Positions 1-26,531 of a stretch of DNA of 27,916 bases are shown here, piece by piece. The notes under the pieces are model-generated. The model was not told the origin of the DNA and did not search any database. It saw only the letters and a list, made by a program, of their open reading frames with translations. Each line of letters begins with the position of its first letter. Position 1 is the stretch's first letter. Origin of the DNA: Kofleriaceae bacterium (lineage in GTDB: Bacteria > Myxococcota_A > Polyangia > Haliangiales > Haliangiaceae); NCBI GenBank assembly GCA_046597055.1, contig JBKJLC010000205.1, forward strand, positions 1 to 27,916, in the 5' to 3' direction. Position numbers and translations under genes: made by a program.

Positions 1-387
1 ACCTTCCGGGTCGCGCCGGATCTGGCAGCGGCGCTCCAGCAGCTCCCCAACCAGACCGCGTTCGTGGAGGCCGCGCTGCGCGACGCGCTCCGGCAGAGCT
101 GTCCGCTGTGCGACGGATCCGGCCGCGCGCCCGTCGCAGACTTCGCAGTGCCCGACTTCCGCGACCAGCAGCTGCCGCGGCTCGCGCCCGCCGCAGGGCG
201 CCGGTTGCGCGAGATCGTCCGGCTGGGCCGGCGGGTGTGGGCGACTGGGCTCGAGCTCACCCGCGAGGCCGACGCCGCCTGGCGGTTTCGCCTGCGCCGC
301 GGCGACGAGCTGCTGCTGACCGGTCGCATCGGCGACGGATCTGACGATCACGACCTCGTCCTGGGCGAGCCCTCTCGCTCCAACTGA
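1..387 (+). CDS. Ribbon-helix-helix (CopG-like) DNA-binding protein with a single CxxCxGxG motif, 5'-truncated by the window edge
   Basis: Frame 1 is open from base 1: TFRVAPDLAAALQQLPNQTAFVEAALRDAL (beta strand-helix-helix pattern typical of RHH proteins), then SCPLCDGSG. Stop TGA at 385-387. Confidence 0.6.
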   Translation, partial: TFRVAPDLAAALQQLPNQTAFVEAALRDALRQSCPLCDGSGRAPVADFAVPDFRDQQLPRLAPAAGRRLREIVRLGRRVWATGLELTREADAAWRFRLRRGDELLLTGRIGDGSDDHDLVLGEPSRSN

Positions 388-400
388 AGAGGAGATTCAC

Positions 401-721
401 ATGGCAACGATGATCACCGACGACTGCATCGGCTGTGGCCGCTGCGCCGAGGAGTGCCCCAACGAGGCCATCTCGCTCGCCGACGATGGCTTCATGTACC
501 GGATCGCAGCCGAGCGCTGCACCGAGTGCGTCGGCTTTCACCGCATGGAGATGTGCCAGGCGGTGTGCCCGGTCGACTGCTGCTTGCCCGATCCGGAGCG
601 ACCCGAGACCGAGGACGCGCTGCGCGCGCGCGCCGAGGCGCTGCACCCGCGGCTGGCCGGCACGCTGGTGCTGTCGCCGGCGACGTCGCGGTTCCGACAG
701 CCGCCAGGTACGGTAGAGTGA
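401..721 (+). CDS. YfhL-family 2x[4Fe-4S] ferredoxin
   Basis: Motifs CIGCGRCAEECPNEAI and CTECVGFH...CQAVCPVDCC. SD-like GAGGAG just upstream of ATG 401. Confidence 0.9.
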   Translation: MATMITDDCIGCGRCAEECPNEAISLADDGFMYRIAAERCTECVGFHRMEMCQAVCPVDCCLPDPERPETEDALRARAEALHPRLAGTLVLSPATSRFRQPPGTVE

Positions 722-724
722 CGC

Positions 725-2347
725 ATGGTGGCCGTACCCGCCCAGCAGCCTGGCGCGAGGCCTGAAGCGAAGTCGTTCCGGATCGAGGATCTGATCCGTT
801 ACGCGCGCGCGGGGCGCATCCGCGTGCCCCGGTTCCAGCGGGGCTTCAAGTGGGAGCGTCCGGACGTCGAGAAGTTGATCGACAGCATTCTCCGCGGGTT
901 CCCCATTGGAACGCTGCTGCTGTGGAGTCGTAAGGCCCCGGCCGAGCGGCTGACGATCGGGGGCCTGGCGCTGGATGTGCCCGAGCAGATTGCCTGGTAC
1001 GTCGTTGATGGTCAGCAGCGGGTGGTGTCCTTGGTCGCGACCCTGATCGCAGCAACCGAACGTGATGCGCGGTTCGACCTGCGCTTCGAGCTGTTCGTCG
1101 ACCTGGCGACCGGCCAGGTGAGGCACACCGCACGTGGCGAGCGTCCGCCATCGTACCTGCCGCTCGACCGGCTCGTCGACTCCGAAGACCTACTCGGCTG
1201 GATCGACGCCAATCGACTGACGCTTACTGCCGACGAAGTCAAGCAGGCGATCCGCGCGGGTCGCGCGGTTCGGGAGTACGAAGTCCCGGCGTACATCGTC
1301 GACGTCGACGACGAGCAGATCGTGCGAGAGATCTTCGAGCGCACGAACACCTCGGGCAAGAAGCTCGATACCAACGAGGTATTCAACGCCCTGCACGCGC
1401 CCCTGGATCGCGAACCAGCCGTGAAGCTTTCGGATGTGGTGGCGCGACTGCGCAGCCGCGGACTGGGTGACGTGGACGAGGATCACGTTCTGAACAGCTT
1501 GCTGACGATCGCAGGCAAGGGCCTATCCGGGGATCTCTCGCAGCGCCTACGAGGCGTCGACGTGACGATCGCTCTTGCGCGCACCGAGCGTGCGCTCGAC
1601 GGCGTGTTCGGATTTCTCGCGCAGGAAGTGGGGATGCCGCATCTCCGGCTCCTGCCCTACAAAAGTCCCTTGATGGTGCTGAGCACGTACTACGATCGAT
1701 TCCCGATTCCCTCGGCCCGCGCCCGGAGGCTGCTCACCCGGTGGCTATGGCGGGGCGTGGTGACCGAGGAGCTGCGCGGTGATGGCAAGGGCATGCGCCC
1801 GGCACTCGAAGCGCTTCGATCGGCACTGACTGACGAGGAGGCCGCGGTGGCGATCCTCGCGACCGTGAGTCGCGCGCGGCCGAGCCTCGACTGGAGCGAG
1901 CCTTTCAATATCGCCCATGCACGCCCTCGGCTACTGGCAGTTGCCATGGCCGAGCTTCGTCCGCAGCACCTGCAGTCCGCGGCGCCGCTGGACGTCGCAT
2001 CCTTGCTCAGCGGCGGCGCGGACGTTTTTCCCCAGATATTTGCGCGGCGCCCGACGGGTCCGGAGCTGCTGGCGCCGTACTCATCCGTCGGGAATCGACT
2101 GTTGCATCCACCCCTCGAGAGCGGAACGTTCTCGAGCTGGCTGGGGCAAGCCGCGCCCGCCGTGCTGGCGACCCACGGCGTCAGCGAGGCCGCGGTCGAG
2201 CATCTGCGCCGCGACGATCGGCGGGAATTTCTGGCGTTGCACCGGCAGCGGATCGAGGCGGTCGCGTGGCAGGTGATCGACAGCCACGCGGAGTGGGAAC
2301 ACTCCGACCGCACGTCGATCCAGGCCATGGGCGACGCGGAGGAATGA
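725..2347 (+). CDS. DUF262 (GmrS / ParB-Srx-like) domain protein, GmrSD-related, with a degenerate C-terminal nuclease-like region
   Basis: DUF262 signature motifs VPRFQRGFKW, LIDSILRGFPIGTLLLW, VVDGQQR and EIFERTNTSGKKL. C-terminal SVGNRLL resembles the HNH/DUF1524 'GNL' segment. Confidence 0.85.
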   Translation: MVAVPAQQPGARPEAKSFRIEDLIRYARAGRIRVPRFQRGFKWERPDVEKLIDSILRGFPIGTLLLWSRKAPAERLTIGGLALDVPEQIAWYVVDGQQRVVSLVATLIAATERDARFDLRFELFVDLATGQVRHTARGERPPSYLPLDRLVDSEDLLGWIDANRLTLTADEVKQAIRAGRAVREYEVPAYIVDVDDEQIVREIFERTNTSGKKLDTNEVFNALHAPLDREPAVKLSDVVARLRSRGLGDVDEDHVLNSLLTIAGKGLSGDLSQRLRGVDVTIALARTERALDGVFGFLAQEVGMPHLRLLPYKSPLMVLSTYYDRFPIPSARARRLLTRWLWRGVVTEELRGDGKGMRPALEALRSALTDEEAAVAILATVSRARPSLDWSEPFNIAHARPRLLAVAMAELRPQHLQSAAPLDVASLLSGGADVFPQIFARRPTGPELLAPYSSVGNRLLHPPLESGTFSSWLGQAAPAVLATHGVSEAAVEHLRRDDRREFLALHRQRIEAVAWQVIDSHAEWEHSDRTSIQAMGDAEE

Positions 2348-2348
2348 G

Positions 2349-3539
2349 GTGGAGCTCCGGGTCAGCCTGAACGCGACGCAAGTCGGCTTTATCCGTGCCC
2401 ATCGCGACGGGCGGAACGAGTTCGTGTTCGCTCGCGACTACCTGGCGGGCGCGCGGCGCCCGGTATTGGGACAGTACTTCGAGGATCATCTCAGCGAGAT
2501 TCAGCGGAGCCAGACGCACCTGCCGCCGTTTTTTTCAGCGCTGTTGCCGGAGGGAGGCCTGCGCGAGTTAGTCGCGCGGCGAGCCAACGTGCACGCGGAC
2601 CGGGAAGCTGCACTGATCGCGGTACTCGGCAAAGATCTGCCGGGCGCGGTCGTCGTGGAACCGATCACTGACCGGGTGGACGACCCGGACGCCGAGCCAG
2701 TGGCGCCGGCCGAGACGCCGCCGTCCGGCGCGCTGCGATTCTCGCTTGCCGGTGCTCAGCTCAAGTTCTCGGTCCTCTACAAGCTCACCGGACGTGGGCC
2801 CACCCTGCCGATCGACGGGGTTGGCGGCAACTGGATCGCCAAGCTGCCCAGCGAGACCTATCCGGGCGTGCCCGAGGTCGAGTATGTCGTCAGCCGGTGG
2901 GCGGGCCGCGTCGGCGTCGCTGTCCCAGAAGTACGGCTCGTCTCGGTCGGTGAGATCGAGGGCCTACCGGTCCAACTCGATCCCGGGCTGAAGGTCTTCC
3001 TCTCGCGACGCTTCGACCGCCCGGACGACGTCGCACGCGTGCATCAGGAGGATTTCGCCCAGGTGATGAACGTCCGACGCGAGGATCGCTACGGGACCTT
3101 GGGGTACGCCAGCCTCGCGCGAATCGTGCGCTCGGTAGCCGGGGAGGATGACTTCGACGAGGTCATTCGGCGGCTCGTGTTCAACGTACTCATCGGCAAC
3201 GGCGACGCCCACCTGAAGAACTGGTCGCTCGTTTATCCCGACGAGGTCAACGCGCGGCTCTCGCCCGCGTACGACCTGGTGCCCACCGTCGTCTACATCC
3301 CCGGGGACCGGCTCGCGCTCAAGCTCGTCCGTGAGAGCCGCTTCGACCAGATCGGGCTCGCCCACTTCGAAAAACTCGCGGTCAAAGTCGGCGTCTCGCC
3401 GAGCCGGGTCGTGGCGCTCGTCCGAGAGACCGCGCAACGGACGATGGCGACGTGGCCGAACGGCGAGCTCGAGCCTGCCCGCGACGCGTTGTTACGCGCG
3501 CATGTCGAGCTGCTGCCGTTGGTTCGCGAAGCCGCGTGA
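2349..3539 (+). CDS. hipA: HipA-family serine/threonine kinase toxin (N-terminal Couple_hipA-like plus HipA C-terminal kinase domains)
   Basis: Motifs LPPFFSALLPEG, GKDLPGAV, SLAGAQLKF (P-loop Ser), WIAKLP, RRFDR, HQEDFAQ, GNGDAHLKNWSL and LSPAYD. GTG start is 1 nt after the upstream TGA, with GGAGGA at ~2338-2343. Confidence 0.9.
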   Translation: MELRVSLNATQVGFIRAHRDGRNEFVFARDYLAGARRPVLGQYFEDHLSEIQRSQTHLPPFFSALLPEGGLRELVARRANVHADREAALIAVLGKDLPGAVVVEPITDRVDDPDAEPVAPAETPPSGALRFSLAGAQLKFSVLYKLTGRGPTLPIDGVGGNWIAKLPSETYPGVPEVEYVVSRWAGRVGVAVPEVRLVSVGEIEGLPVQLDPGLKVFLSRRFDRPDDVARVHQEDFAQVMNVRREDRYGTLGYASLARIVRSVAGEDDFDEVIRRLVFNVLIGNGDAHLKNWSLVYPDEVNARLSPAYDLVPTVVYIPGDRLALKLVRESRFDQIGLAHFEKLAVKVGVSPSRVVALVRETAQRTMATWPNGELEPARDALLRAHVELLPLVREAA

Positions 3540-3593
3540 GGCGGCGCGGGGAGGTTCGCCTCGGTCGACTGGGTTCCTTCCGCGCGGGTGGGT

Positions 3594-6179
3594 TCAGATC
3601 GTCGCGTCGCCGAAGTTGCCGTACCCGTCGCTGATGCGGATCCGGACGACGGTAGCCGCGGCGGCGCCCAGCTCGACGGTGACCTCGCCGGCGCTGGTGC
3701 TGGTGACGACCTGGGCCGCGCCCACCGGCGCACCGCCCGCGGCGAAGGCGGTCACGGTGAGCGCCTGGGTGCGCAGCGGCACCGGACGGTTCGACGGCGC
3801 GGCGAGATCGAGCAGGCGGTAGCCCTTGGGCGCGTGGTGATGCGCGGTCGCGCGGAGGGTCGTGCCGGTCCGGGTCGCGGCCACGGTCACCGGTCCGATC
3901 ACCACGGCGAACGGATCGCTGGCGAGCGACCAGCCGTCGCCCTCGACCCGGAACCGGTAGCGGCCGAGCGGCGCGCCGCCGCGGGCGCCGAGCCCGTCGA
4001 GCCCGGCGAGGCCGGTCCACGGCACCGGCTGCCACTCGACCGCCCACACGTGCTGCTGCGGCCCACCGGCGCGGACCAGCGGGCTGGGCGCGTGGACGAC
4101 GATCAGATCGCCGTCGAGCACCGGCCGACCGCTGCGCCGCGTGACCGGCGCCCAGGCGGCGCCGACCTCGCGCTCGAGCGTCACGCGCGGGGTGCGGGTC
4201 AACGGATCATCGCCGAGCCACACGAACGTCGCCAGGCCCGCCACCCGCGGCACCTCGGCCGCCGGCTGGGCCTGCGCCGGGCGGCCCGCGCGCATCCATA
4301 GATCCGCCGGCACGGTGGCCGGGATGGTGCCAGCCTGCGGCGCCGGTCGGTCGTGCGGCAGCTGGTCGCTGATGACCGGCATGACCACGCGATCGGTGCC
4401 GCCGGCGGCGCCGTCGCTGCGGGTGGCCGCCATCGCCAGCGGCATCAGCTCGGCGAGGCGCTCGACCAGGTACTCGCCCTCGAGCGGACCGTTGAACGTG
4501 ACGCTCGGCTCGTAGCCGCCTTGCAGCCAGTCCTCGGGCGTCAGGCAGTAGCCGACGTGACCCTGCGAGTAGCCGACCGCGATCGTGTGCACGCTGTCGA
4601 TCGGCGACGCCGCGCGCAGCGTGTCGGCGAGCAGCACGCTGAGCTCGCCCGGGACGGTCGCGACCAGGTGCTCGCCCAGGCGCAGCGCCGAGATCGTCGT
4701 GCGCGTGGTCTGGCACGCGGGCCGATCGGCGCTGACGTCGGCGAAGCTGATATCGAGCAGCTGGCCGAGGATCGGCGCCGCCTGGTCGATGCGCAAGCAC
4801 GAGCCGTAGACGTCCAGCCCTTCGGTGCCGGGCATCGCCGCCGCGGGAAACAGCGCCTGCTGCGTCTCGCACAGCGCGGCGCCGACCGGCGCGTTCCACT
4901 CGTCGATCGGGGACACCAACGTGCCGCCGTTCCACACGATGCCGTCGGCGGGTCGGTCGAGATCGAAGGGCGCATAGGCGAGCGCGCCGTCACGGATCGT
5001 GTAGGTGTCGGCGTGGGGCCCGAGCTCGACCGAGCGGGTCACCATCGCGAGCGCCAGGGTGTCCCGCATCTGGGTCCCCGCGGCGGTCCAGCCGGCCATG
5101 ATCGGATCGACCGCGGCGCGACCGTGGCCCTCGGCGGTCAGCCATCGGAAGCACGGATCATCGGCGCCACCCGGCTTGACCGCGCAGTCGACCTGGCCAT
5201 GGCCGGTCGCGGAGGTATCGGCGCCGCCGGCCTGCACGTGCATCACGACCACCGGCCGATCGAAGCGCTCCTCGACCATGCGCTCGAGCTCGCCGACCGA
5301 GTCGGTCGAGGCCAGCGGGTTGTCGGCCTCGTTGAGGGTCGGGTGCATGCCGACGATCGGGATGATCGCGATCGGCTCGCCGCTGGTGCGGTCGATGCGG
5401 ATCAGGTGGAAGCGCTCGTCCTTGCGGTTGCCGCCGGGCAGGTCGTCGTTGGCGCTGCGGCGCTCGTGGCTGATCGCATCGGTGGGATCGAAGTCGGTGT
5501 CGGTGAAGAAGCCGATCGTCGCCGGCCGCAGATCGGCGAGGGCGGCCCGCGCTGCCGCCTCGATCCCCTGCATGAACCGATCGTGGACCAGGCCCCGGAC
5601 CTCGCCCGAGCCGACCTTGAGCGGCGAGTGCGCGGTGTACTGCGACCAGGCCGAGTGGCTGTGCGACGTGCTGACGAGCACCTTGCCGTGGAGGTCGGGA
5701 CCGAGCCGGCGCTCGAGCTCGAACAGCCACTCCTCGTAGGCGAAGATCGCGTCGACCTTGAGCCACAGCACGGTCTCGCCGCCGGCGCGCAGGGCAACCG
5801 CCTTGACCAGCGGCCGGGTCTCGATGCCGACGGTCGCCTGCCAGGCGCCCGCGATCGGGACCACGCGGCTGTCGACCTTCGGCACGTTGCCGAGCGCTTC
5901 GGAGCGCGCGGTGTAGCCGCCCAGCCCGGTGCCCACCGGCACGTCGAGCGCGACCTCGGCCGCGCCGGCCTCGAGCGGCGCCGCGGTCACCGGCGTGCCG
6001 GCGTGCGCGGAGGGCGCGACCGGCTCGAACGTACAGTGCGCCGTGGTGACGCCAGCGTCAGGCCCGGCGCCGGGCGGGTCGTCGCCACAGCCGGCGGCGA
6101 GCGCGAGCGCCACGAGCGGCGCCCGGGCAGAACCGATGATAGACGCCAGGCCTCGTCCCACGCGCGGGGATTCCCTCAT
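3594..6179 (-). CDS. Neutral/alkaline non-lysosomal ceramidase-like lipoprotein
   Basis: Lipobox LALAAGC. Motifs GLGGY, SHSHS (metal-binding HxH), GMHPT, TVPGE, GYSQGHVGY...GGYE, plus C-terminal beta-rich domains. ATG 6179 chosen because an extended -10-like TGGTAGGGT lies 7 nt upstream. Confidence 0.7.
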   Translation of the reverse strand: MRESPRVGRGLASIIGSARAPLVALALAAGCGDDPPGAGPDAGVTTAHCTFEPVAPSAHAGTPVTAAPLEAGAAEVALDVPVGTGLGGYTARSEALGNVPKVDSRVVPIAGAWQATVGIETRPLVKAVALRAGGETVLWLKVDAIFAYEEWLFELERRLGPDLHGKVLVSTSHSHSAWSQYTAHSPLKVGSGEVRGLVHDRFMQGIEAAARAALADLRPATIGFFTDTDFDPTDAISHERRSANDDLPGGNRKDERFHLIRIDRTSGEPIAIIPIVGMHPTLNEADNPLASTDSVGELERMVEERFDRPVVVMHVQAGGADTSATGHGQVDCAVKPGGADDPCFRWLTAEGHGRAAVDPIMAGWTAAGTQMRDTLALAMVTRSVELGPHADTYTIRDGALAYAPFDLDRPADGIVWNGGTLVSPIDEWNAPVGAALCETQQALFPAAAMPGTEGLDVYGSCLRIDQAAPILGQLLDISFADVSADRPACQTTRTTISALRLGEHLVATVPGELSVLLADTLRAASPIDSVHTIAVGYSQGHVGYCLTPEDWLQGGYEPSVTFNGPLEGEYLVERLAELMPLAMAATRSDGAAGGTDRVVMPVISDQLPHDRPAPQAGTIPATVPADLWMRAGRPAQAQPAAEVPRVAGLATFVWLGDDPLTRTPRVTLEREVGAAWAPVTRRSGRPVLDGDLIVVHAPSPLVRAGGPQQHVWAVEWQPVPWTGLAGLDGLGARGGAPLGRYRFRVEGDGWSLASDPFAVVIGPVTVAATRTGTTLRATAHHHAPKGYRLLDLAAPSNRPVPLRTQALTVTAFAAGGAPVGAAQVVTSTSAGEVTVELGAAAATVVRIRISDGYGNFGDATI

Positions 6180-10453: not shown

Positions 10454-12265
10454 ATGACCCCGCTGATCCTCATCGTCTCCGCGTCGCGCACCGACGCCGC
10501 CGAGCTGCAGCCCGCGCTGGCCGGCTGGGCCGAGGCGATCACGATCGAGCGGCGGGCGGATCTCGAGGCCGCCCTCACGCGCCAGCCGCGCCTGATCGTC
10601 GTGGGGGCGCGCCTGCGCGAGGGCACCCCGGCCGAGGTGCTGGCCGCGCTGGCCGGGCTCGAGTCGGCGCCGCCGGTGGTCGTGCTGGACGCCGCGCCGC
10701 GCGCGGACGACGGCCACGCCTACCACCTCGTGCGCCGCGGCCTGCCGGTCGAGCAGCTGCGGCTGATCCTCGGCAGCGCGGTGGCCGGTCGTCCGCTCGC
10801 CGCCGGCCCGCGCGCGACCGCCGGCTCGATCGACGATGCGCGACGCACCCAGCGCGCCTTCGAGGCGTCGCGCCGGGTCGCGGTGCAGCACGAGCTGGTC
10901 GGGGCCGAGGCCGAGGGCGTCGCCCAGATCATCCAGCTGCTCGCCGCCGACCGCGCGCACCTGCTGTTCCACGACGGCACCAGCGGTGATCTGTGGTCGC
11001 AGGAGCGCCAGGCCAGCCCGAGCGGCGACGCCCGTCGCGCGGTCGGTGGGCTCGCCGGGTACACCGCGCGCACCGGCCAGGTCGCGGTGACCGCGCGCGC
11101 CGCCGCCGACCCGCGCTACCTGGCGACGATCGACGATCCGCGCGGCCGCGGCGACGAGCACCTGCTGACCCAGCCGGTGATCGACGGCGAGACCATCCAC
11201 GCGGTCCTGGTCGCGGTGCGCACCGCCGCCCGCTCGCCGTTCGCCGGCGAGGACAGCGCCCAGCTCGCCGCCTTTGCCGCGCTGATCGGCCCGCTGCTGG
11301 TCCAGCTATCGTCGCAGGTCGAGGCGCGCTCGATGATCGACGAGGCCGAGGGCGGCGCGCTGTTCCGGGCCGAGGCGGTCGCCGCCCGCAAGGTGCAGCG
11401 CTACGGCCACGTCCTGCAGCTGCGCCCGCGCTGGATCGGCTGGGGCTACGCGGCGCTGGTCGCGATGGTGCTCGGCGGGGTCGGGTTCGTCGCGGTCGGC
11501 CGGGTCGGCACCTACAGCACCGGTCCCGCGGTGGTCCGGACCCTGTCGCGGGTCGAGGTGGTCGCGGGCACCGCCGGCACCGCGCGCGAGGTCCGGGTGA
11601 CGCCCGGCCAGGAGGTCGCCGCCGGCGACGTCCTGATCCGGCTCGACGACACCCGCGAGCGCGCCGAGCTCGAGCGCCTCACCGACGCGTTCGACGCCCA
11701 GCTGCGCAACCGGATGCTGGCCCCGACCGTCGACGCCACCGGGCAGGCGGTGGGCGGCCTCCGCCTCGAGCTCGAGCGCGCCCGCGCCCAGGCCGAGCAG
11801 CGCGAGGTGCGCGCGACCAGCGCCGGCATCGTCGGCGAGATCCGGGTCCGTCCGGGCCAGTCGGTCGCGGCCGGCGACACGCTGCTGTCGCTCGCGCCCG
11901 CAACCAGCGGTCATGAGGTGCTCGCCTTCTTGCCGGGCGGTGACCGGCCGCAGCTGACCGCGGGCATGGCGGTGCGCCTGCGCCTGGTCGGCTTCTCGCA
12001 GACGTACCAGGACCTCGAGATCGACACGGTCGCCGACGAGATCGTCGGGCCCAGCGAGGCCCAGCGTTACCTCGGACCCCAGCTGTTCGACAGCCTGCGC
12101 CTGGGCGGACCGGTCGTCATCGTGCGCGCGCGGCTGCCGGCCGATGGCTTCACCGCCGACGGCAAGCGCTACCGGTGGCACGACGGCCTCAGCGGCCTCG
12201 CCGAGGTCCGCGTCCGCTCCGACAGCGTGCTCGCCACCATCATCCCCGCGGTGAAGAAGCTGTGA
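10454..12265 (+). CDS. HlyD-family membrane-fusion protein with N-terminal pseudo-receiver and GAF domains
   Basis: Receiver-like N-terminus (LILIVSA...PRLIVVG...PPVVVL). GAF motifs ADRAHLLFHD, GLAGYTARTG, ADPRY, PFAGED..L. Then LFRAEAV, one TM helix, and lipoyl-like halves VTPGQEVAAGDVL / VRPGQSVAAGDTL. Confidence 0.8.
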   Translation: MTPLILIVSASRTDAAELQPALAGWAEAITIERRADLEAALTRQPRLIVVGARLREGTPAEVLAALAGLESAPPVVVLDAAPRADDGHAYHLVRRGLPVEQLRLILGSAVAGRPLAAGPRATAGSIDDARRTQRAFEASRRVAVQHELVGAEAEGVAQIIQLLAADRAHLLFHDGTSGDLWSQERQASPSGDARRAVGGLAGYTARTGQVAVTARAAADPRYLATIDDPRGRGDEHLLTQPVIDGETIHAVLVAVRTAARSPFAGEDSAQLAAFAALIGPLLVQLSSQVEARSMIDEAEGGALFRAEAVAARKVQRYGHVLQLRPRWIGWGYAALVAMVLGGVGFVAVGRVGTYSTGPAVVRTLSRVEVVAGTAGTAREVRVTPGQEVAAGDVLIRLDDTRERAELERLTDAFDAQLRNRMLAPTVDATGQAVGGLRLELERARAQAEQREVRATSAGIVGEIRVRPGQSVAAGDTLLSLAPATSGHEVLAFLPGGDRPQLTAGMAVRLRLVGFSQTYQDLEIDTVADEIVGPSEAQRYLGPQLFDSLRLGGPVVIVRARLPADGFTADGKRYRWHDGLSGLAEVRVRSDSVLATIIPAVKKL

Positions 12266-12267
12266 CC

Positions 12268-15032
<2,765 letters not shown>

Positions 15033-15036
<4 letters not shown>

Positions 15037-15965: not shown

Positions 15966-16070
15966 CCCAGTGGCGGGCGCCCTGACGCGCCGCCCACCGC
16001 CGCGGTGACCCCGGCCGTTGCTGCGGCGAGCCTTTCGAGCACCACCCGCGCCGTGGTACGCCGGCGCCCC

Positions 16071-18374
16071 ATGCGCTCTCCTGCCCGAGCCCTGCTCGCG
16101 TCCTTCGTCGCCACCGCCACCGCCTGCGGCGGCGCCACGCCCCCCCGTACGAGCACCGCGGCGACCCCGGGCTTGATCACCGTGCCGTCGACCGAGGTGT
16201 CGGCGCCACCCGCCGCGCCAGTCGCCGCGGTCCGCCGGTTCGAGGTCGCGTCGCCGCACGGCAACCGGGTCGACCCGTACTACTGGCTGCGCGACGACAC
16301 CCGCACGTCGCCCGACGTCCTCGCCTACCTGAACGCCGAGCAGGCTTACACCGCCGCGGTGCTGGCGCCGGTGAAGTCGGTCGAAGACACGCTGTTCGCC
16401 GAGCTGCGCGGCCGGATCAAGGAGGACGACGCCTCGGTGCCGACCTTCGACGCTGGCTACTGGTACTACCGGCGGTTCGAGACCGGGAAGCAGCACCCGG
16501 TCCACGCGCGCCGCAAGGGCACGATGGAGGCTGACGAGGAGATCCTGCTCGACGGCAACCAGCTGGCCACGGGTCACGCCTTCTACGCCATCGGCGCCTA
16601 CGAGGTCAGCCCGGGCGGCACGCTGCTGGCGTGGACCGAAGACGCGGTGGGACGTAACCAGTTCACGCTGCGCATCAAGGACCTGGCGAGCGGGAACCTG
16701 CTCGCGGACAGCGTCGCGAACATCTCCAACTCGCTCGTCTGGGGTGGCGACGACCGCACCCTGTTCTACGTCGGCAAGGACGCCACCACGCTGCGCGCGG
16801 ATCGCGTCATGCGTCACACCGTCGGCGCCGGCGACGCCCTGCTGTGGAAGGAGGACGACACATCGTTCAGGGTCGACGTGGCCGCCACCAAGTCGAAGCA
16901 GTACGCGCAGATCCAGATCGGCTCGACCACGACCAGCGAGGTCCGGTTGATCGATCTGGCCCGGCCCGCCGCGGCGCCGCGCGTCTTCCTGCCGCGCGCC
17001 AAGGACCACATCTACTGGCTCGACCACCTCGACGGCCGGTTCGTCGTGCTCACCAACGATCGCGGCAAGAACTTCCGCCTCGCCGAGGTCAAGGACGGCA
17101 AGGAGCGCGACCACAGGGCGTGGCGCGACCTGCTCGCGCACCGCGACGACACCCTGGTCGAGGGGTTCGCGCTGCATCGGGGCTTCGTCGGCGTGTCGAT
17201 CCGCACCGGCGGCCTGCGCAAGGTGCGGGTGATCCCGGCCAAGGGCAAGCCGTTCGTGCTCGACGCAGCCGACCCCACCTACGCGATGGCGGTGATCGAC
17301 ACCCCGGACCCGGCGGCCAAACGCCTGCGCTACTCGTACGATTCGCTGACCACGCCGAACACGATCTCGGAGATCGAGGTCGCGACCGGCAAGAAGGTCG
17401 TCCTCAAGACGCAGCCGGTGCCCGGCTTCGATCCCGCGCAGTACACGAGCGAGTACCTGCACGCCACCGCAGCCGATGGCACCAAGGTCCCGATCTCGGT
17501 GGCCTACAAGAAGGGCACGCCGCGCGACGGCACCGCGCCGATCCTGGTCTACGGCTACGGCTCGTACGGCATCTCGGAGGATCCCGAGTTCAACCCGAAC
17601 CTGGTGAGCCTGATGGACCGCGGCTGGGTCTACGCGATCGCCCACATCCGCGGCGGCCAGGAGCTCGGCCGGGCCTGGTACGAGGACGGCAAGCTGCTGA
17701 AGAAGCGCAACACGTTCACCGACTTCATCGCGGCGAGCGAGCTGCTGGTCGCCGAGCGCTACGCGGCGCGCGACCGCGTGTTCGCGCTGGGCGGCAGCGC
17801 AGGTGGCCTGCTGATGGGCGCGATCGTCAACCTGCGCCCGGATCTCTATCGCGGCGTGGTGGCCCGGGTGCCGTTCGTCGACGTGGTCACGACGATGCTC
17901 GACGAGTCGATCCCGCTCACCACCAACGAGTTCGACGAGTGGGGCAATCCGAAGGACAAGGCCTCCTACGACTACATGCTGGCGTACTCGCCCTACGACA
18001 ACGTCACCGCGAAGGACTATCCCGCGCTGTTCGTGCAGACCGGGCTATGGGACAGCCAGGTCCAGTACTACGAGCCGGCCAAGTGGGTCGCGAAGCTGCG
18101 CGCGACCCGCACCGACACCAACCCGCTGGTGTTCGACATCGACATGAGCTCCGGCCACGGCGGCGCGTCGGGACGCTTCGACAGCCTGCGCCAGACCGCT
18201 CGCTACCTCGCGTTCCTGCTGCACGTGAACGAGCGGCCCGACACCCGTCGGGGCTGGCCGGCGCCCTTTCCCGGTGGCCCTGCGCGCAGCGCGCAGCGCG
18301 AAGTCGAACCGCAGACCTCAGCAAGACGTCGGCACCGCGGCAAGGGTCCGCGAGGATCGAATCTATCGATGTGA
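16071..18374 (+). CDS. ptrB: Oligopeptidase B (S9A serine peptidase), predicted lipoprotein
   Basis: HGNRVDPYYWLRD, YGYGSYG, GGSAGG (catalytic Ser), PFVDVVTTMLDESIPLT, GLWDSQVQYYEPAKW (Asp), GHGG (His). N-terminal ATATAC lipobox-like segment. Confidence 0.93.
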   Translation: MRSPARALLASFVATATACGGATPPRTSTAATPGLITVPSTEVSAPPAAPVAAVRRFEVASPHGNRVDPYYWLRDDTRTSPDVLAYLNAEQAYTAAVLAPVKSVEDTLFAELRGRIKEDDASVPTFDAGYWYYRRFETGKQHPVHARRKGTMEADEEILLDGNQLATGHAFYAIGAYEVSPGGTLLAWTEDAVGRNQFTLRIKDLASGNLLADSVANISNSLVWGGDDRTLFYVGKDATTLRADRVMRHTVGAGDALLWKEDDTSFRVDVAATKSKQYAQIQIGSTTTSEVRLIDLARPAAAPRVFLPRAKDHIYWLDHLDGRFVVLTNDRGKNFRLAEVKDGKERDHRAWRDLLAHRDDTLVEGFALHRGFVGVSIRTGGLRKVRVIPAKGKPFVLDAADPTYAMAVIDTPDPAAKRLRYSYDSLTTPNTISEIEVATGKKVVLKTQPVPGFDPAQYTSEYLHATAADGTKVPISVAYKKGTPRDGTAPILVYGYGSYGISEDPEFNPNLVSLMDRGWVYAIAHIRGGQELGRAWYEDGKLLKKRNTFTDFIAASELLVAERYAARDRVFALGGSAGGLLMGAIVNLRPDLYRGVVARVPFVDVVTTMLDESIPLTTNEFDEWGNPKDKASYDYMLAYSPYDNVTAKDYPALFVQTGLWDSQVQYYEPAKWVAKLRATRTDTNPLVFDIDMSSGHGGASGRFDSLRQTARYLAFLLHVNERPDTRRGWPAPFPGGPARSAQREVEPQTSARRRHRGKGPRGSNLSM

Positions 18375-21539: not shown

Positions 21540-21792
21540 CGCCCGCGCACGGAGCTCAACGAGGCCTGGCGTACCGAGCTCGACGCCGGCGACACCGGAT
21601 CGCCAGACGATCGCGCCCGCGTCACGATCGACCACGAACGAGTCGGGGCTTGCGCTGATCGGCGCTCGACCGAGCAACCGGGGGACCGTCCAGATCACCG
21701 GCACCCGCGGCCTGGACCGATGGGGCGACGTCGGCGCGACGGTGGGCGAGGGCTGGCTGTTCGTCGAGTCGAGCACCGCCCTCGCCCGCTGA
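21540..21792 (+). pseudogene. Possible gene remnant
   Basis: Coding-like codon bias in a start-less stretch ending ...TVQITGTRGLDRWGDVGATVGEGWLFVESSTALAR* (TGA 21790-21792), with other coding-like fragments in other frames upstream. Confidence 0.25.
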
Positions 21793-21893
21793 TCGGGGGC
21801 ATTTTTCGGCAACTGCGGCACCGTCCGAACGATAGGGGCCCGCGCATGAGGCTGATCCGCTTCGACGTCGGCACGATGGGTCCAAGTGGACTG

Positions 21894-24800
21894 ATGTTCT
21901 GCATTGCCTGCCGCAGGTACCGGCAACCCGAGCACGCGCGACCACCGGACGCGTGCGCGGCCTGCGGCGGCGTCACGATCCAGCCGGCGCGCACCACGCT
22001 CGCCGACGACCTCGCGCGGCTGCGCTACCTCGAGCACGAGCTGCGCACCTGGGCCCGGACCGGGCTGATCGACGAGGCGACGCGGGACCGGCTGCTCGCG
22101 CCGTACCTCGAGGACGCCGCGCTCGCGCAGCAGTACCTGGACGACGAGGCCGCACCGGTGTCGCCGGCCCCGGTGCCGGTCGTCGAGGTCGTCGCGGCCA
22201 TCGCGGTCGTCCCGGCCGCCGCGCCCGGCGAGGTCGTGCCCGTGGTGGCGGTCGCCGAGCTCGTCGAGCCAGTCGGGGTCCCGGCCGCGCCCGCCCCGTC
22301 GCCGGCCCCCCCGGCCCCGCCCGGACCGCCACCGCGGGAGGACCCGCGGCTCCTCCGCGAGCTGCGGCCGGTGTTCTACGAGAACCTGGTCCTCCTCCTG
22401 GGCGCGTTCCTCGTCTTCGCCGGCTCGGTCTACTTCGCCATCTACTTCTGGGACCGGCTGGGCAGCGTCGGCCCGCTGGTCGCCGGCAGCCTCCTCGCCG
22501 GGTACGCCTCGAGCTTCGCCGGCACCGGCTACCTGGTGCAGCGCCGCTACCACGCCGACCTCAGCGCGCGCGTGCTCTACGCCATCGCCACGACGATCTT
22601 GCCGGTGGCCGTCACCCTGCTCGGTCAGCCACTCGCGGGCGGTGGGCTCGGCCTGAGCGTGCTCGCCGGCGCCGCGGTCACGCTGATCTCGGTGCTGGCC
22701 TACCCGGCGCTCTGGGTCGCGGCGTCGCTCTTCCAGCGCGAGGTCGGCCGGCCGTTCGCGCGCTCGTTCGTGGTGATGCTGCTGGCGATCGGGTGGGCGC
22801 CGCTGGTCGCGCACCATCTGCCGCGGCCGGTCGGCCTGCTATTCCTCTATCTCGCCACCCTGCCCTTGCTGGTCATGTACCGGCAGATCCGCGGCATCGG
22901 CTGGGTCTTCGAGCGCGCGACCGTGGTCTACGTCGTCGGCGGCTCGGCCTACGCGCTCCTGGCCGTGGCCACCCGCACCTCGCTGGCCCTCGAGCCCGTG
23001 CTCCGGCCCGCCGAGCTCGCGCCGCTCCTGGTCCTGATCGCCACCGCCGCGATCGATCTCGACGTGTCGTGGCGCGCGCGCGCCCACGCGGTGCGCACGA
23101 CGCTCGGCGCGGTCGGCGTGCTCGCCCACGGCGCGGCGGTGCTGGCGGTCGCGCTGGCGGCGCTGCACCCGGGCTGGCGCCTGGTCACCACCCTGGCGAC
23201 CGGCCTCCTGTTCGCGGTCGCCGCGCTCCGCCACCAGCGCGCCCAGGCGCTGCACCTGGCGCTGCTCGCGCTCGCCGCGAGCGCCGTGATGGTGCTGTGG
23301 CTGCCGGGGTTCAGCCCGCCGCGCGGGGTCGCGTTCGCCGGCGTCCTGCTCCTGCCGCTGGCGCTCGGGACCGCGCACCTCGCGGCCCGCTGGCGTCGCC
23401 ACGGCGCGATCGAATTCGCGCGGATCTGCGAGGTCTGGACGGTGGCGTGCGCGGTGGGCGCGGCGCTGATGGCGCTCGGCTTGCCCCGGCTCGGGCCCGG
23501 GTGGACCGCCGCCGCGCTGGGCTCGCTCGCCCCGCGCCTGCCCGCGCTCGTCATGCTGCCGGCGACCGCCGCCGCGCTGGCGCTGGCGTGGCGGTGGACG
23601 CGGCGCCGCGGCCTCCTCGGGCTCGCCGTGCTCGCCGCGGCGTCCACCGTGGTGCTGCTCGCGGGGATGGCCGGCGCCGGGCTGGCCACCCTGGCCGCGA
23701 CCACGGCCGGGCTCGGGCTGATGGTCGCGCTCGCCGCCGCCGCCGCCGGGCGTCGCGGCCATGCCGACGCGCAACTCGGCCTGGTCGATGCGGCGATGGT
23801 GCTCGCGGGCATCGGCTTCCTGGCCACGGTCGCCGCGCACCTCGGCGGCTGGCCCGGCCCGGACCTCGCGCCGCGCATGCTCGCCGGGGTGCTGGTCGCG
23901 GCCGCGGCGATCGCGGTGAGCGCCCAGATCCCCCGGCGCGCGCTCGACGTCCTCGCCGTGCTCGCGCTCGCCACGTCGTGCGCGGCCGCGCTCGCCCCGG
24001 TGGTCCCGCTGGCGCTCCTGGCCGGCGTGCTCGCCCTGGGCCTGTTCGCGCTCGACGCGCGCCTGCGCGACGCCGTGATCGGGGCGGCGCGGCCGTTCGC
24101 CGACGCCTGGTGGATCGCGATCGCGGCGACCGCCGTGCAAGCGTTCCACCTCGCCGAGACCACCGCCCGCCTGGCGACGCTGGCCTCGCTCGAGGCGACC
24201 CTGGTCGCGGCGGCCTGCTTCATCGTCGCCGCGCGCCGCTCGCGCGCCTGGCCCACGTACCTCGGCCTCGGCTTCCTGGCCGCCGCCGCCTACGGGCTGC
24301 CAGCGGCGCTCGCCCTCGACGTCAGGCCCCGGACGGTGGTCAAGGCGTGCGGGCTGGCGGTGGTGGCGGTCGCCCTGCTGCTGCGGGCCTGGCCGCGGCT
24401 GGTCCGCTGGCGCACCACGTTCCTCGACGTGCCGCTGCACCTGGCGGCGATCGGCGTGCCGATCGCGTGGTTCCGACCACTCACGCTGCTCGGCACGCTC
24501 GGCGACGACGGCTCGGTCGGATCGAGCCGCCTGCTGCGCGCGCTCGGATCGGCGCTCGCGCTGGCCACGCTGGCCGCGCTCGTGCACGGCTCGATCCTCC
24601 ATGCCTACCTGGCGGCGGCGGCGCTGGCGCTGCTGGCGCCAGCGGCCGCGGCGGCGCTCGGGCTGAGCACCGCGGCGGTCGCGCCGGCCTTCGCGGTATC
24701 GGCGCTGGTGATGCTGGCCGCGGCTCACCTCGCGCGGCGGAGCCGCTGGCTGCGCGGGGCGGTGCGCGCGGGCGACCGGCCGCTGGCGCTGTTCGGACGC

Positions 24801-26531
24801 TGGCGCCTCCCGGCCGCGGCCAGCCACGGTGCGTTGTGGGCGCCGCCGCTCGCGCGGACGAGCGCGCTGGCCGCGCTCGCCGCCCTGGTGCTGGTCGCCG
24901 GCGCGCCGGTGCTCGCCGGGCCGGCGCTCGCGCTCGTGCTCCTGGTCGGATATGCGCTGTGGCGGTGGCTGGCGCCGGCCCCGGCCGAGCACCCCTGGAT
25001 CGCGCGCGCCCGGCTCTGGGTCCACGCCGCCTGCGCCGGCATGGTGGCGCTGGCCGGCGCGCTGTGCCAGCTCGCCGAGATGACGACGACGATCGTCGCC
25101 GGCGCTGCGGTGATGGGCTGTCTGTTCTGGTTCGTCGGCGAGGTCCTCGCCCGCACGCCGTGGGCGCGCACCCGCGACGGCGCGCGCGGGTTCCTCGCGT
25201 GGAGCGTGCTGCTGCCGCTGATCGCGGTCGCCGCCGGCGCGCCGCGCGACGTCCCGCTCGCGGGCCTCGGCGCCGTCCTGCTCGCGCTCACCGTCACGCG
25301 TTATCGCGGCCGCTATCACGCCGACCGCATCCGGCTCGCGCCCTCGGTCGCGACCATGGTCGCCGCCGGGCTGGTCGTGCGCGGCCTGCTGGTCCGCAGC
25401 GGCTGGGCCGAGCCCACCGCCGTCACGCTCGCGGCGCTCGCACTCACCGCGAGCCTGGGGGCGTGGGCGCACTGGGGGCTGCGCCGCCGGGTCGGCCTCG
25501 GCGCGCCCCGTGCGTACGCCTCGGGCTGGGCGCTGGTCGCGGCCGCGCTCGCGCTGGCCTCCGCCGGCGCGGGCGCGCCACTGGCGGCGTCGGCGGTCGT
25601 GACCGCGGCGGTCGGACTGACCGCCCTCGGGCTGGTCACGGTGTGGTTCGGCTTCGCGGCCGTCGACACCGGTCGCGCCCAGCACGGCCACCCGGCGCTC
25701 GCTGGTCTCATTCTGGTCTACCTGCACGTCCGGATCGGGCCGTTCGGCGCCGGCCTGAACGCTGGGCTCGACGCCAGCCTCGCCGTCGGTGCCGCGTTCT
25801 TGCTCCACCTCGCGACCGAGGTGCTGGGACGCGGACGGCTGGCGGCGCTCGCCGGTTCGGCCCGCGCCGGCGCGCGCGTGCTGCCCGCGGTCGCCACCGC
25901 TGTGCTCGCCGTGGCGGTCGCGAACGGCGCCCCCGGCGTGACCACGCTCGTGCTGGTCGTGCTCGCCGAGGCGATCGGATTGATCTACGCGCTCGGCCAC
26001 CGCGGTGGCGGTCACCCGCTCCTCGGCCTGGCCGCCGCGGTCTCTTGCAACGCTGGCCTGCTGCTGCTCGCGCAGCGCAGCGACCTGCGCGACGCGCTCT
26101 TCTACACGATCCCGACCGGCGTCTCGATCGTGGTCCTCGCCCGTCTGTACCGCGCCCACCTGGATCCCGGCGCGAGTCGTGCGCTGCGGACGCTCGGCTG
26201 CCTGCTCATCTACGTCTCGGGCTTCTACCAGGCGCTGCAGTTCGACGGCGGCAGTCCGGCGCTGGTCCTGGGTGGCCTGACGCTGGTCGGCGTGGGCCTC
26301 GGCTTCGCACTGCAACTGCGCGACCTGTTCCTGCTCAGCGTCGGCTTCACCGTCCTGAACGTGCTCAGCAACCTGGCCTACTACGGCGTACACCGTCCGC
26401 TCCTGGGCTGGACCATCCTGACCCTGACCGGGCTGGGCCTGACCGCGAGCGGCGTGCTGTTCCAGCTGCGCCGCGCCCGGCTACGGGCCTGGATCGCGCG
26501 CACGCGCGCGCTCCTGCGGCGCTGGGACTAG
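21894..26531 (+). CDS. Very large (~1545 aa) polytopic membrane protein with N-terminal CxxC...CxxC zinc ribbon, function unknown
   Basis: Single open frame. MFCIAC...CAACGG, then ELRTWARTGLID (DUF2157-like), a Pro-rich linker and dozens of hydrophobic segments. Start could instead be 21846 or 21876. Confidence 0.75.
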   Translation: MFCIACRRYRQPEHARPPDACAACGGVTIQPARTTLADDLARLRYLEHELRTWARTGLIDEATRDRLLAPYLEDAALAQQYLDDEAAPVSPAPVPVVEVVAAIAVVPAAAPGEVVPVVAVAELVEPVGVPAAPAPSPAPPAPPGPPPREDPRLLRELRPVFYENLVLLLGAFLVFAGSVYFAIYFWDRLGSVGPLVAGSLLAGYASSFAGTGYLVQRRYHADLSARVLYAIATTILPVAVTLLGQPLAGGGLGLSVLAGAAVTLISVLAYPALWVAASLFQREVGRPFARSFVVMLLAIGWAPLVAHHLPRPVGLLFLYLATLPLLVMYRQIRGIGWVFERATVVYVVGGSAYALLAVATRTSLALEPVLRPAELAPLLVLIATAAIDLDVSWRARAHAVRTTLGAVGVLAHGAAVLAVALAALHPGWRLVTTLATGLLFAVAALRHQRAQALHLALLALAASAVMVLWLPGFSPPRGVAFAGVLLLPLALGTAHLAARWRRHGAIEFARICEVWTVACAVGAALMALGLPRLGPGWTAAALGSLAPRLPALVMLPATAAALALAWRWTRRRGLLGLAVLAAASTVVLLAGMAGAGLATLAATTAGLGLMVALAAAAAGRRGHADAQLGLVDAAMVLAGIGFLATVAAHLGGWPGPDLAPRMLAGVLVAAAAIAVSAQIPRRALDVLAVLALATSCAAALAPVVPLALLAGVLALGLFALDARLRDAVIGAARPFADAWWIAIAATAVQAFHLAETTARLATLASLEATLVAAACFIVAARRSRAWPTYLGLGFLAAAAYGLPAALALDVRPRTVVKACGLAVVAVALLLRAWPRLVRWRTTFLDVPLHLAAIGVPIAWFRPLTLLGTLGDDGSVGSSRLLRALGSALALATLAALVHGSILHAYLAAAALALLAPAAAAALGLSTAAVAPAFAVSALVMLAAAHLARRSRWLRGAVRAGDRPLALFGRWRLPAAASHGALWAPPLARTSALAALAALVLVAGAPVLAGPALALVLLVGYALWRWLAPAPAEHPWIARARLWVHAACAGMVALAGALCQLAEMTTTIVAGAAVMGCLFWFVGEVLARTPWARTRDGARGFLAWSVLLPLIAVAAGAPRDVPLAGLGAVLLALTVTRYRGRYHADRIRLAPSVATMVAAGLVVRGLLVRSGWAEPTAVTLAALALTASLGAWAHWGLRRRVGLGAPRAYASGWALVAAALALASAGAGAPLAASAVVTAAVGLTALGLVTVWFGFAAVDTGRAQHGHPALAGLILVYLHVRIGPFGAGLNAGLDASLAVGAAFLLHLATEVLGRGRLAALAGSARAGARVLPAVATAVLAVAVANGAPGVTTLVLVVLAEAIGLIYALGHRGGGHPLLGLAAAVSCNAGLLLLAQRSDLRDALFYTIPTGVSIVVLARLYRAHLDPGASRALRTLGCLLIYVSGFYQALQFDGGSPALVLGGLTLVGVGLGFALQLRDLFLLSVGFTVLNVLSNLAYYGVHRPLLGWTILTLTGLGLTASGVLFQLRRARLRAWIARTRALLRRWD

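Follow-up and report, generated by a model that had tools for sequence, protein, structure and literature searches.

HipA kinases are classic persistence toxins and are almost always discussed together with HipB-type repressors. In a 27,916-nt stretch of DNA from a Kofleriaceae bacterium (contig JBKJLC010000205.1 of assembly GCA_046597055.1; hereafter the window), the gene located immediately upstream of hipA encodes a 540-amino-acid (aa) GmrSD/BrxU-like protein with a DUF262 domain. An earlier note on this DNA had singled out the two genes as a cassette without HipB and as a candidate undescribed defence or toxin-antitoxin system. The window represents an entire contig of an 8.38-Mb, 303-contig assembly, and that genome contains one HipA_C gene and one GmrSD_N gene, both of which are found here. 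The module comprises the following features:

725..2347, + strand: DUF262 gene (540 aa, GmrSD/BrxU-like), ATG at 725 and TGA at 2345-2347, from the list of open reading frames (ORFs)
782..1396, + strand: ParB/Srx-like DUF262 domain, residues 20-224, with nucleoside triphosphate (NTP)-binding motifs, from Pfam GmrSD_N, conserved residues and ParB-CTP (cytidine triphosphate) structures
1397..2344, + strand: helical middle and DUF1524-like C-terminal region without the nuclease dyad, from the absence of a Pfam family and the SspE alignment
2338..2351, + strand: coupling junction, with Shine-Dalgarno (SD) sequence GGAGGA at 2338-2343, TGA at 2345-2347 and GTG at 2349-2351, read from the sequence
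2349..3539, + strand: hipA gene, encoding a 396-aa HipA-family Ser/Thr kinase, GTG at 2349 and TGA at 3537-3539, with Pfam matches
2742..2765, + strand: Gly-rich/P-loop segment S132-K139 (SLAGAQLK), from the BLASTP alignment to E. coli K-12 HipA
3204..3275, + strand: catalytic loop D286-A-H-L-K-N291 (nt 3204-3221) and Mg-binding D309 (nt 3273-3275), aligned to E. coli HipA
3540..3593, no strand: 54-bp spacer between hipA and a convergent ceramidase-like gene, the right-hand end of the module, from the ORF list and the sequence

A single base separates the DUF262 stop codon from the hipA start codon, and the GGAGGA SD, 5 nt from the hipA GTG, overlaps the last, acidic codons of the DUF262 gene. 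These junction features and the 54-bp spacer are all present in the sequence as the earlier note had read them, and the ORF list and Pfam agree with it that no helix-turn-helix (HTH) ORF lies on either side of the pair in the window flanks.

Conservation, phylogeny and spread of the gene pair

A search of the protein collection at E<=1e-3 returned 141 relatives of the DUF262 protein, none of them with a label more specific than 'DUF262 domain-containing protein'; the closest homologues that carry a name are labelled Kofleriaceae. A set of genomic loci was assembled from the best 80 of 450 DUF262 relatives, with one genome per species, and in 77 of these 80 a HipA homologue is located directly downstream on the same strand. 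The gene order described for the window is thus conserved among its homologues, and because order and strand are the same in 77/80 loci the pairing is far beyond chance. The three loci without HipA are L046, where the contig ends 66 nt past the gene, L043, where DUF262 is intact, and L048, where DUF262 is frameshifted. The translational coupling proposed from the window sequence is likewise borne out elsewhere: in 50 of the 66 loci with clean ORFs the gap between stop and start, with start codons chosen heuristically, is -4 to +4 nt, all 66 fall within -14 to +33 nt, and in this group the acidic tail codons of the upstream gene (GAGGAGGA...) often serve as the hipA SD too. Pairwise distances of the DUF262 and HipA proteins are strongly correlated (62 pairs, r=0.887, with 0/999 permutations as high), a value to which species history contributes.

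When 2707 flanking ORFs of at least 55 aa were clustered across the 80 loci, neither a conserved third gene or small antitoxin nor a conserved HTH family was detected among them. The clusters obtained, the largest of which spans 12 loci, reflect within-genus synteny only, indicating that the unit contains no third gene. A functional link between the two proteins receives modest support from a fusion, P0132 (766 aa), modest because it represents a single cluster, of four sequences. Pfam places GmrSD_N at residues 31-232 and HipA_C at 482-709 of this protein, and by reading, its DUF262 part extends from residue 1 to about 445 and is joined to the HipA core at a 'DLPGAVEV' motif. The fusion lacks both the dead-nuclease region and the N-terminal subdomain of HipA. 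Gene integrity over the 80 loci was scored as follows:

67 loci: both genes intact
7 loci: HipA broken or absent, DUF262 intact (L014, L017, which holds masked N, L037, L043, L050, L076 and L080)
2 loci: DUF262 frameshifted, HipA motifs intact (L032 and L052)
1 locus: both genes affected (L048)
3 loci: cut by a contig end (L046, L063 and L068)

The nearest other kinases were sought in metagenomes with a HipA profile, and the best 80 of 533 relatives were kept as loci. Five of these (L083-L086 and L088) have a DUF262 gene upstream by tblastn, L136 has by reading a C-terminal DUF262 fragment at the contig edge, and L087 has no upstream sequence. In 53 of the 80 an XRE-type HTH ORF, recognized with a motif regular expression, ends at the HipA start, and in most of the others an HTH motif is visible by eye or the upstream sequence is missing. 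A FastTree phylogeny of 140 kinases places the 53 HTH-flagged rows without exception in one 71-row clade (support 100), with the DUF262-linked rows all on the opposite side. When one plasmid row was added and E. coli K-12 HipA was taken as the root, the DUF262-linked kinases, together with L087 and L136, form a 70-row clade (support 91), and the sister 71-row clade (support 75) contains all 53 HTH-flagged kinases and no DUF262-linked ones. Since the nearest other HipA kinases have an XRE-HTH gene upstream and the tree splits so cleanly, the DUF262 protein stands in the position of HipB, in accordance with the earlier suggestion that it occupies the antitoxin slot. The topology fits a single exchange of partner, after which the new pair would have spread as a unit.

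As a mobile unit, the two genes are passed on jointly and occur in at least four phyla and on plasmids. Carriers include Myxococcus, Corallococcus, Archangium, Sorangium, Haliangium and Kofleriaceae (Myxococcota), Micromonospora, Dactylosporangium, Nonomuraea, Amycolatopsis and others (Actinomycetota), Thermoanaerobaculia (Acidobacteriota), and Methylomonas, Lysobacteraceae, Verticiella and Azospirillum (Pseudomonadota). Two Azospirillum plasmids carry the pair, one of them conjugative and with a recombinase gene just upstream; RefSeq labels the plasmid pair 'DUF262 domain-containing protein' and 'type II toxin-antitoxin system HipA family toxin'. In the window, the GC content of the cassette (0.66-0.68; 0.81-0.83 at third codon positions, GC3) is below that of its neighbours (0.71-0.77; GC3 0.90-0.97), and the ferredoxin, first ORF and ceramidase-like genes that surround it are found in no related locus, including L083, whose pair is about 74% identical. 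A genome of the same genus, G150, is syntenic with the window from about position 3688 on (73-81% nucleotide identity), on a contig that ends 845 nt beyond its ceramidase-like gene. The DUF262-HipA pair of that genome is located on another contig, shows 34% and 38% protein identity to the pair in the window, and is a different lineage of the module. A search of a phage collection returned one weak partial match to the DUF262 protein. The presence of the pair in culturable strains of Myxococcus, Sorangium, Micromonospora, Methylomonas and Azospirillum makes it directly testable.

One locus of the set, L013, comes from a record named Comamonas sp. KCTC 72670, yet in coordinates and junction sequence it is identical to Myxococcus loci, with which its flanks also group, so that organism name and sequence may be mismatched in this record.

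The two proteins and their catalogued relatives

The kinase matches Pfam Couple_hipA at residues 3-103 (2.7e-16) and HipA_C at residues 131-369, over the full 213-position profile (4e-50). The closest Protein Data Bank sequences are HipT(Lp) of Legionella (4.1e-16) and E. coli HipA (1.3e-10), and the N-terminal segment 5-106 matches HipS(Lp) at 8.7e-05. In a BLASTP alignment with E. coli K-12 HipA (24% identity, 2e-17), residues S132, K139, K165, D286, H288, K290, N291 and D309 correspond to S150, K157, K181, D309, H311, K313, N314 and D332, of which S150 is the autophosphorylation site of the E. coli kinase. Residues S132, A134, G135, Q137, K139, K165, E178, D286, H288, K290, N291 and D309 are invariant in 62 sequences. 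The protein is intact, retains all catalytic residues and looks, from its sequence, like an active kinase. The translation machinery is the known point of attack of HipA-family toxins (PMC8262856).

Two further HipA kinases, P0130 (756 aa) and P0131 (810 aa), share 40-42% identity with the one in the window, bear a C-terminal extension of 370-400 aa without a Pfam family, and represent another HipA architecture that is not listed.

The DUF262 protein has a full GmrSD/BrxU-like fold, keeps the NTP-binding motifs of that lineage and has no recognisable His-Me nuclease site. Pfam GmrSD_N/DUF262 is matched at residues 20-224 (7.6e-27), within which are found the motifs FQR (37-39), DGQQR (95-99, nt 1007-1021) and FERTNTSG (204-211); R33, P35, F37, R39, D53, S54, D95-R99, R206 and G211 are invariant in 62 HipA-linked homologues. 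An AlphaFold2 model built from an 83-sequence alignment has a mean predicted local distance difference test score (pLDDT) of 93.0 and a predicted template modelling score (pTM) of 0.86. Foldseek searches with this model returned BrxU (7p9k, 2.5e-11) as the top match, followed by SspE and then by 9jfl_B, a chain of a DndBCDE-DndI entry. VIA-align superposed 471 residues of the model, between positions 13 and 527, on BrxU 7p9k with a Z score of 16.1 and a root-mean-square deviation (rmsd) of 14.6, which is large because the domains are oriented differently; residues 211-526 align with the C-terminal domain of SspE (7dri_C) at Z 9.8 over 285 residues with an rmsd of 6.0, and ParB-CTP structures match the N-terminal domain at Z about 7. 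The earlier note had spoken simply of a DUF262 protein, and this proves to be a complete GmrSD/BrxU-like protein that has lost its nuclease motif.

That loss concerns the C-terminal half. DUF1524 (PF07510) gave no match in the protein, and the C-terminal 311 aa (residues 230-540) match no Pfam family even at E<=1. The segment 'DVFPQIF' (nt 2021-2041) occupies the position at which relatives carry a DHIxP-type motif (as defined in PMC4619093 and PMC8565348); a distant member of the family, P0118, has the DHIxP-like sequence 'FHHIFP...N...N' at this position. In the 62 HipA-linked sequences, His is outside the six commonest residues at both columns of the dyad (P436 and Q437), in the wider alignment it is found at the P436 column in 4/83 rows, and the Asn that follows the dyad region (N457) is replaced by Ala in 11/62 HipA-linked sequences. 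In BrxU, D474 and H475 of the DHIYP motif are required for DNA cleavage and phage resistance, and NTP hydrolysis persists without them (PMC8565348). Since DUF1524 is not matched and the dyad position is not conserved, the C-terminal region probably represents a nuclease-dead remnant. The protein thus resembles GmrSD, BrxU and SspE in its overall fold, its N-terminal DUF262 domain and its DGQQR and (R/K)L(F/I)DS NTP-binding motifs (PMC8565348), and differs from them in having no Pfam DUF1524, in the replacement of the DHIYP dyad by non-conserved residues and in the kinase gene that follows it in 77/80 loci.

Among the systems catalogued by PADLOC, PDC-M55C is matched along the entire DUF262 protein (2.5e-60, 203 bits), and HEC-05, NsnA (1.5e-14) and SspE are matched more weakly and at its N-terminus only; the kinase has only weak matches to PDC-M03A (9.1e-09). 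True members of PDC-M55C score 270-430 bits, as against about 200-215 bits for HipA-linked proteins, and by tblastn the 12 best Myxococcota loci for PDC-M55C contain no HipA. Upstream of five PDC-M55C genes that were scanned, PDC-M55A is an ATP-binding cassette (ABC) ATPase (AAA_15/AAA_21/DUF3696) that also matches NsnB, and PDC-M55B has no Pfam family. On these profile scores, the DUF262 protein is a diverged relative of PDC-M55C, a component of a Menshen-like candidate defence system. Because PDC-M55 loci contain an ABC ATPase and not HipA, the same kind of DUF262 protein is paired either with a Menshen-like ATPase arm or with HipA. The window contains neither component A nor component B of PDC-M55, of which HipA is not a component. 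Similarly, the N-terminal domain resembles NsnA of Menshen (NsnABC), although neither an NsnB nor an NsnC gene is found in the window. Menshen NsnA, a DUF262 protein, has been proposed to be a DNA sensor, in a report whose available parts mention neither kinases nor HipA (PMC12065111).

A PDC-M55C-like gene was detected in 51 of 401 Myxococcota genomes and 46 of 254 genera searched, and in one of six genomes of the window's family besides its own. More than one PDC-M55C-like match (two or three) occurs in several Myxococcota genomes, and at five Myxococcota loci (L168, L169 and L172-L174) a DUF262 gene is grouped, in a PDC-M55-like set of three, with genes for an ABC ATPase resembling NsnB and for an unknown protein ~320-375 aa long.

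Compared with hipBA, the pair shares a HipA kinase with Couple_hipA and the catalytic residues, an upstream and translationally coupled partner gene, and a sister clade made up of ordinary hipBA; it differs in that the partner is a 540-aa DUF262 protein instead of an HTH protein of roughly 90 aa, and in having no adjacent HTH gene. A DUF262 partner features in none of the ten Hip gene organisations catalogued by Gerdes et al. (2021; PMC8262856), and the terms 'DUF262', 'GmrSD' and 'nuclease' are absent from the main text of that article. The pair would hence constitute an eleventh, widespread organisation, with a partner derived from restriction enzymes. The closest working analogue is DS-6/HipAD, catalogued as PDC-M66, a validated defence pair whose kinase is neutralised by its partner (PMC12548924, PMC13092281). 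In that system a HipA-like kinase is combined with a DUF3037 protein and defends against phage Bas51; deletion of the kinase abolishes defence and deletion of the partner is toxic (PMC12548924), and a catalytic mutant loses defence (PMC13092281). Both consist of two genes, for a HipA-family kinase and a non-HTH partner, the partner being DUF3037/DUF1829 in DS-6/HipAD and the unrelated DUF262 protein here, and neither protein of the window matches PDC-M66; DUF262 and GmrSD go unmentioned in the main text of either report (PMC12548924, PMC13092281). DS-6/HipAD therefore offers the best model of how the pair may operate.

As to novelty, no description of the DUF262-HipA pairing was found in the literature searched, nor does the name 'PDC-M55' occur there. 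To that extent the pairing is undescribed, as the earlier note had supposed, although its DUF262 protein, taken alone, matches a catalogued candidate. We infer the function of the pair and regard it as a variant of HipA toxin-antitoxin and defence modules rather than as a new category.

Possible roles of the pair

With moderate confidence, we consider the pair to be a translationally coupled module for abortive infection, of the toxin-antitoxin type, whose DUF262 protein would restrain HipA and release it on sensing foreign DNA or altered nucleotide pools. In such a mechanism, the DUF262 protein would bind HipA and hold the kinase in check; free HipA would be toxic, phosphorylating an aminoacyl-tRNA synthetase or other translation factor by analogy with E. 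coli HipA and HipT. HipA would be released when the DUF262 protein binds or hydrolyses NTP and its DUF262 and helical domains recognise foreign or modified DNA, and the infected cells would stop growing as a result. A more tentative proposal concerns the origin of the arrangement, namely that a GmrSD/BrxU-like type IV restriction lineage lost its nuclease and was rewired as a sensor and gatekeeper of HipA. Modified or foreign DNA would in that case be reported by the DUF262 NTPase and answered with arrest of translation by phosphorylation in place of cleavage, and the kinase would be exchangeable with the ABC-ATPase arm of PDC-M55 and Menshen-like systems.

Several observations weigh against the proposed abortive-infection module. 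Toxicity of HipA, binding and neutralisation by its partner and protection against phage are steps that we infer, and the nuclease-dead state of the C-terminal region is deduced from the alignment and the missing Pfam match. An indispensable antitoxin would not be expected to occur broken beside intact HipA motifs, as the DUF262 gene does at L032 and L052, unless the frameshifts stem from misassembly or the N-terminal part of DUF262 is enough, and the asymmetry of decay expected of a toxin and its antitoxin is only mild, at 7 versus 2 loci. The FastTree phylogeny relies on a single outgroup, E. coli HipA, on a long branch (3.4). The window neighbours are of housekeeping type, encoding ferredoxin, ceramidase-like, DNA alkylation repair, pyridoxal phosphate (PLP)-dependent and ferritin-like proteins. 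Defence-island enrichment, for which the earlier note had suggested a survey of gene neighbourhoods, is not evident. In a PADLOC scan at 1e-15 of 150 ORFs within 5 kb of the pair at 22 loci (from 166 ORFs of 24 loci, L071, L078 and two edge ORFs having been left out), 10 ORFs at 7 loci gave matches, a count that has no baseline, and 15 loci gave none. The matches are a ThsB-like Toll/interleukin-1 receptor (TIR) protein (L006), SoFic (L065), PDC-S01 (L062), mad2/mad3 (L026, L039 and L062), MkoA/C (L056), PD-T4-6 (L008) and PycC (L026). Several of them are generic (kinase, cyclase or HTH-type), and PD-T4-6 and PycC look like a generic kinase and cyclase.

The paucity of nearby defence genes at most loci would suit a plain type II toxin-antitoxin system involved in addiction or persistence, in which the DUF262 protein is a large substitute for HipB that binds HipA and represses the operon through its ParB-like and helical DNA-binding parts, and no phage is sensed. 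We regard this as a serious rival, albeit a rather doubtful one. The gene order and coupling resemble those of hipBA, the kinases are sister to hipBA kinases, a conjugative plasmid, a kind of replicon in which addiction modules are frequent, carries the pair, and RefSeq labels the kinase a type II toxin-antitoxin toxin. Against these points, a 540-aa partner with invariant NTP-binding motifs exceeds what repression and neutralisation would need, the catalogued protein most closely related to it belongs to a candidate defence system, and sensing is the role of the DUF262 domain in GmrSD, SspE and Menshen (PMC10952713, PMC12065111). Nor is an operator or promoter region belonging to the pair evident in the window, because the DUF262 gene starts 3 nt after the ferredoxin gene. 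The roles might also be reversed, with the DUF262 protein as the effector, acting as an NTPase or as a nuclease through its ParB/Srx-like domain, and HipA regulating it by phosphorylation. ParB/Srx-like domains have been proposed to possess nuclease activity themselves (PMC4619093), the overall GmrSD-like fold is retained, and L032 and L052 tolerate an intact HipA beside a broken DUF262. This arrangement is nonetheless improbable, since the DH dyad essential to cleavage and defence by BrxU (PMC8565348) is absent and its position not conserved, HipA-family kinases are known as toxins that target translation (PMC8262856), and HipA is the gene broken more often (7 versus 2 loci).

That the two genes simply travel side by side, or that they serve housekeeping signalling and have no role as toxin or in defence, seems very improbable. 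The housekeeping genes around the pair in the window and the fact that HipA toxicity is a prediction here would accord with such a reading, but the unit has been kept in order and tightly coupled across four phyla and plasmids amid unrelated flanks, the distribution of the PDC-M55C-like gene among Myxococcota genomes is patchy, and the composition of the cassette is unlike that of its neighbours.

If the partner of HipA does sense DNA or nucleotides, as the abortive-infection module presumes, the pair would link modification-dependent restriction to toxin-antitoxin abortive infection. It would also provide a simple two-protein system for the study of signalling from a DUF262 NTPase to an effector, a question shared by Menshen, Dazbog and PDC-M55. 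Its value would lie in its breadth, in the origin of the partner from restriction enzymes, in the modular interchange of HipA and the PDC-M55/Menshen-like ATPase arm, and in its culturable carriers.

Surroundings of the pair in the window

Upstream of the pair, a ferredoxin gene (401-721, + strand; 106 aa, 4Fe-4S) ends with TGA at 719-721. Since this is 3 nt before the DUF262 ATG, the cassette may be expressed in this genome by read-through from the ferredoxin promoter. Further upstream, the ORF at 1-387 (+ strand) is truncated at its 5′ end by the contig edge and contains a CxxC motif; it is not conserved beside the module, and its identification as a ribbon-helix-helix protein, considered because of a likeness at the N-terminus, was dropped as Pfam gives no significant family. 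On the other side, the convergent ceramidase-like ORF (Pfam Ceramidase_alk, 2.1e-10) has its stop codon at 3594-3596. Scans of positions 1-4200 for promoters, terminators and repeats gave nothing above chance and no flanking repeats that would mark an insertion, and no terminator-like site was found in the spacer at 3540-3593.

Elsewhere in the window, an ORF at 21720-26531 (+ strand, 1603 aa) matches no Pfam family at 1e-5; the GC content (about 0.78-0.80) and strong AT skew (about -0.4) of the stretch in which it lies suggest a repetitive or low-complexity protein. The gene at 12175-15036 (+ strand) encodes an ABC transporter of the kind that exports bacteriocins or peptides, bearing a C39 peptidase domain at its N-terminus, and is followed by a prolyl oligopeptidase gene at 16005-18374; this region may represent a locus for peptide maturation and export.

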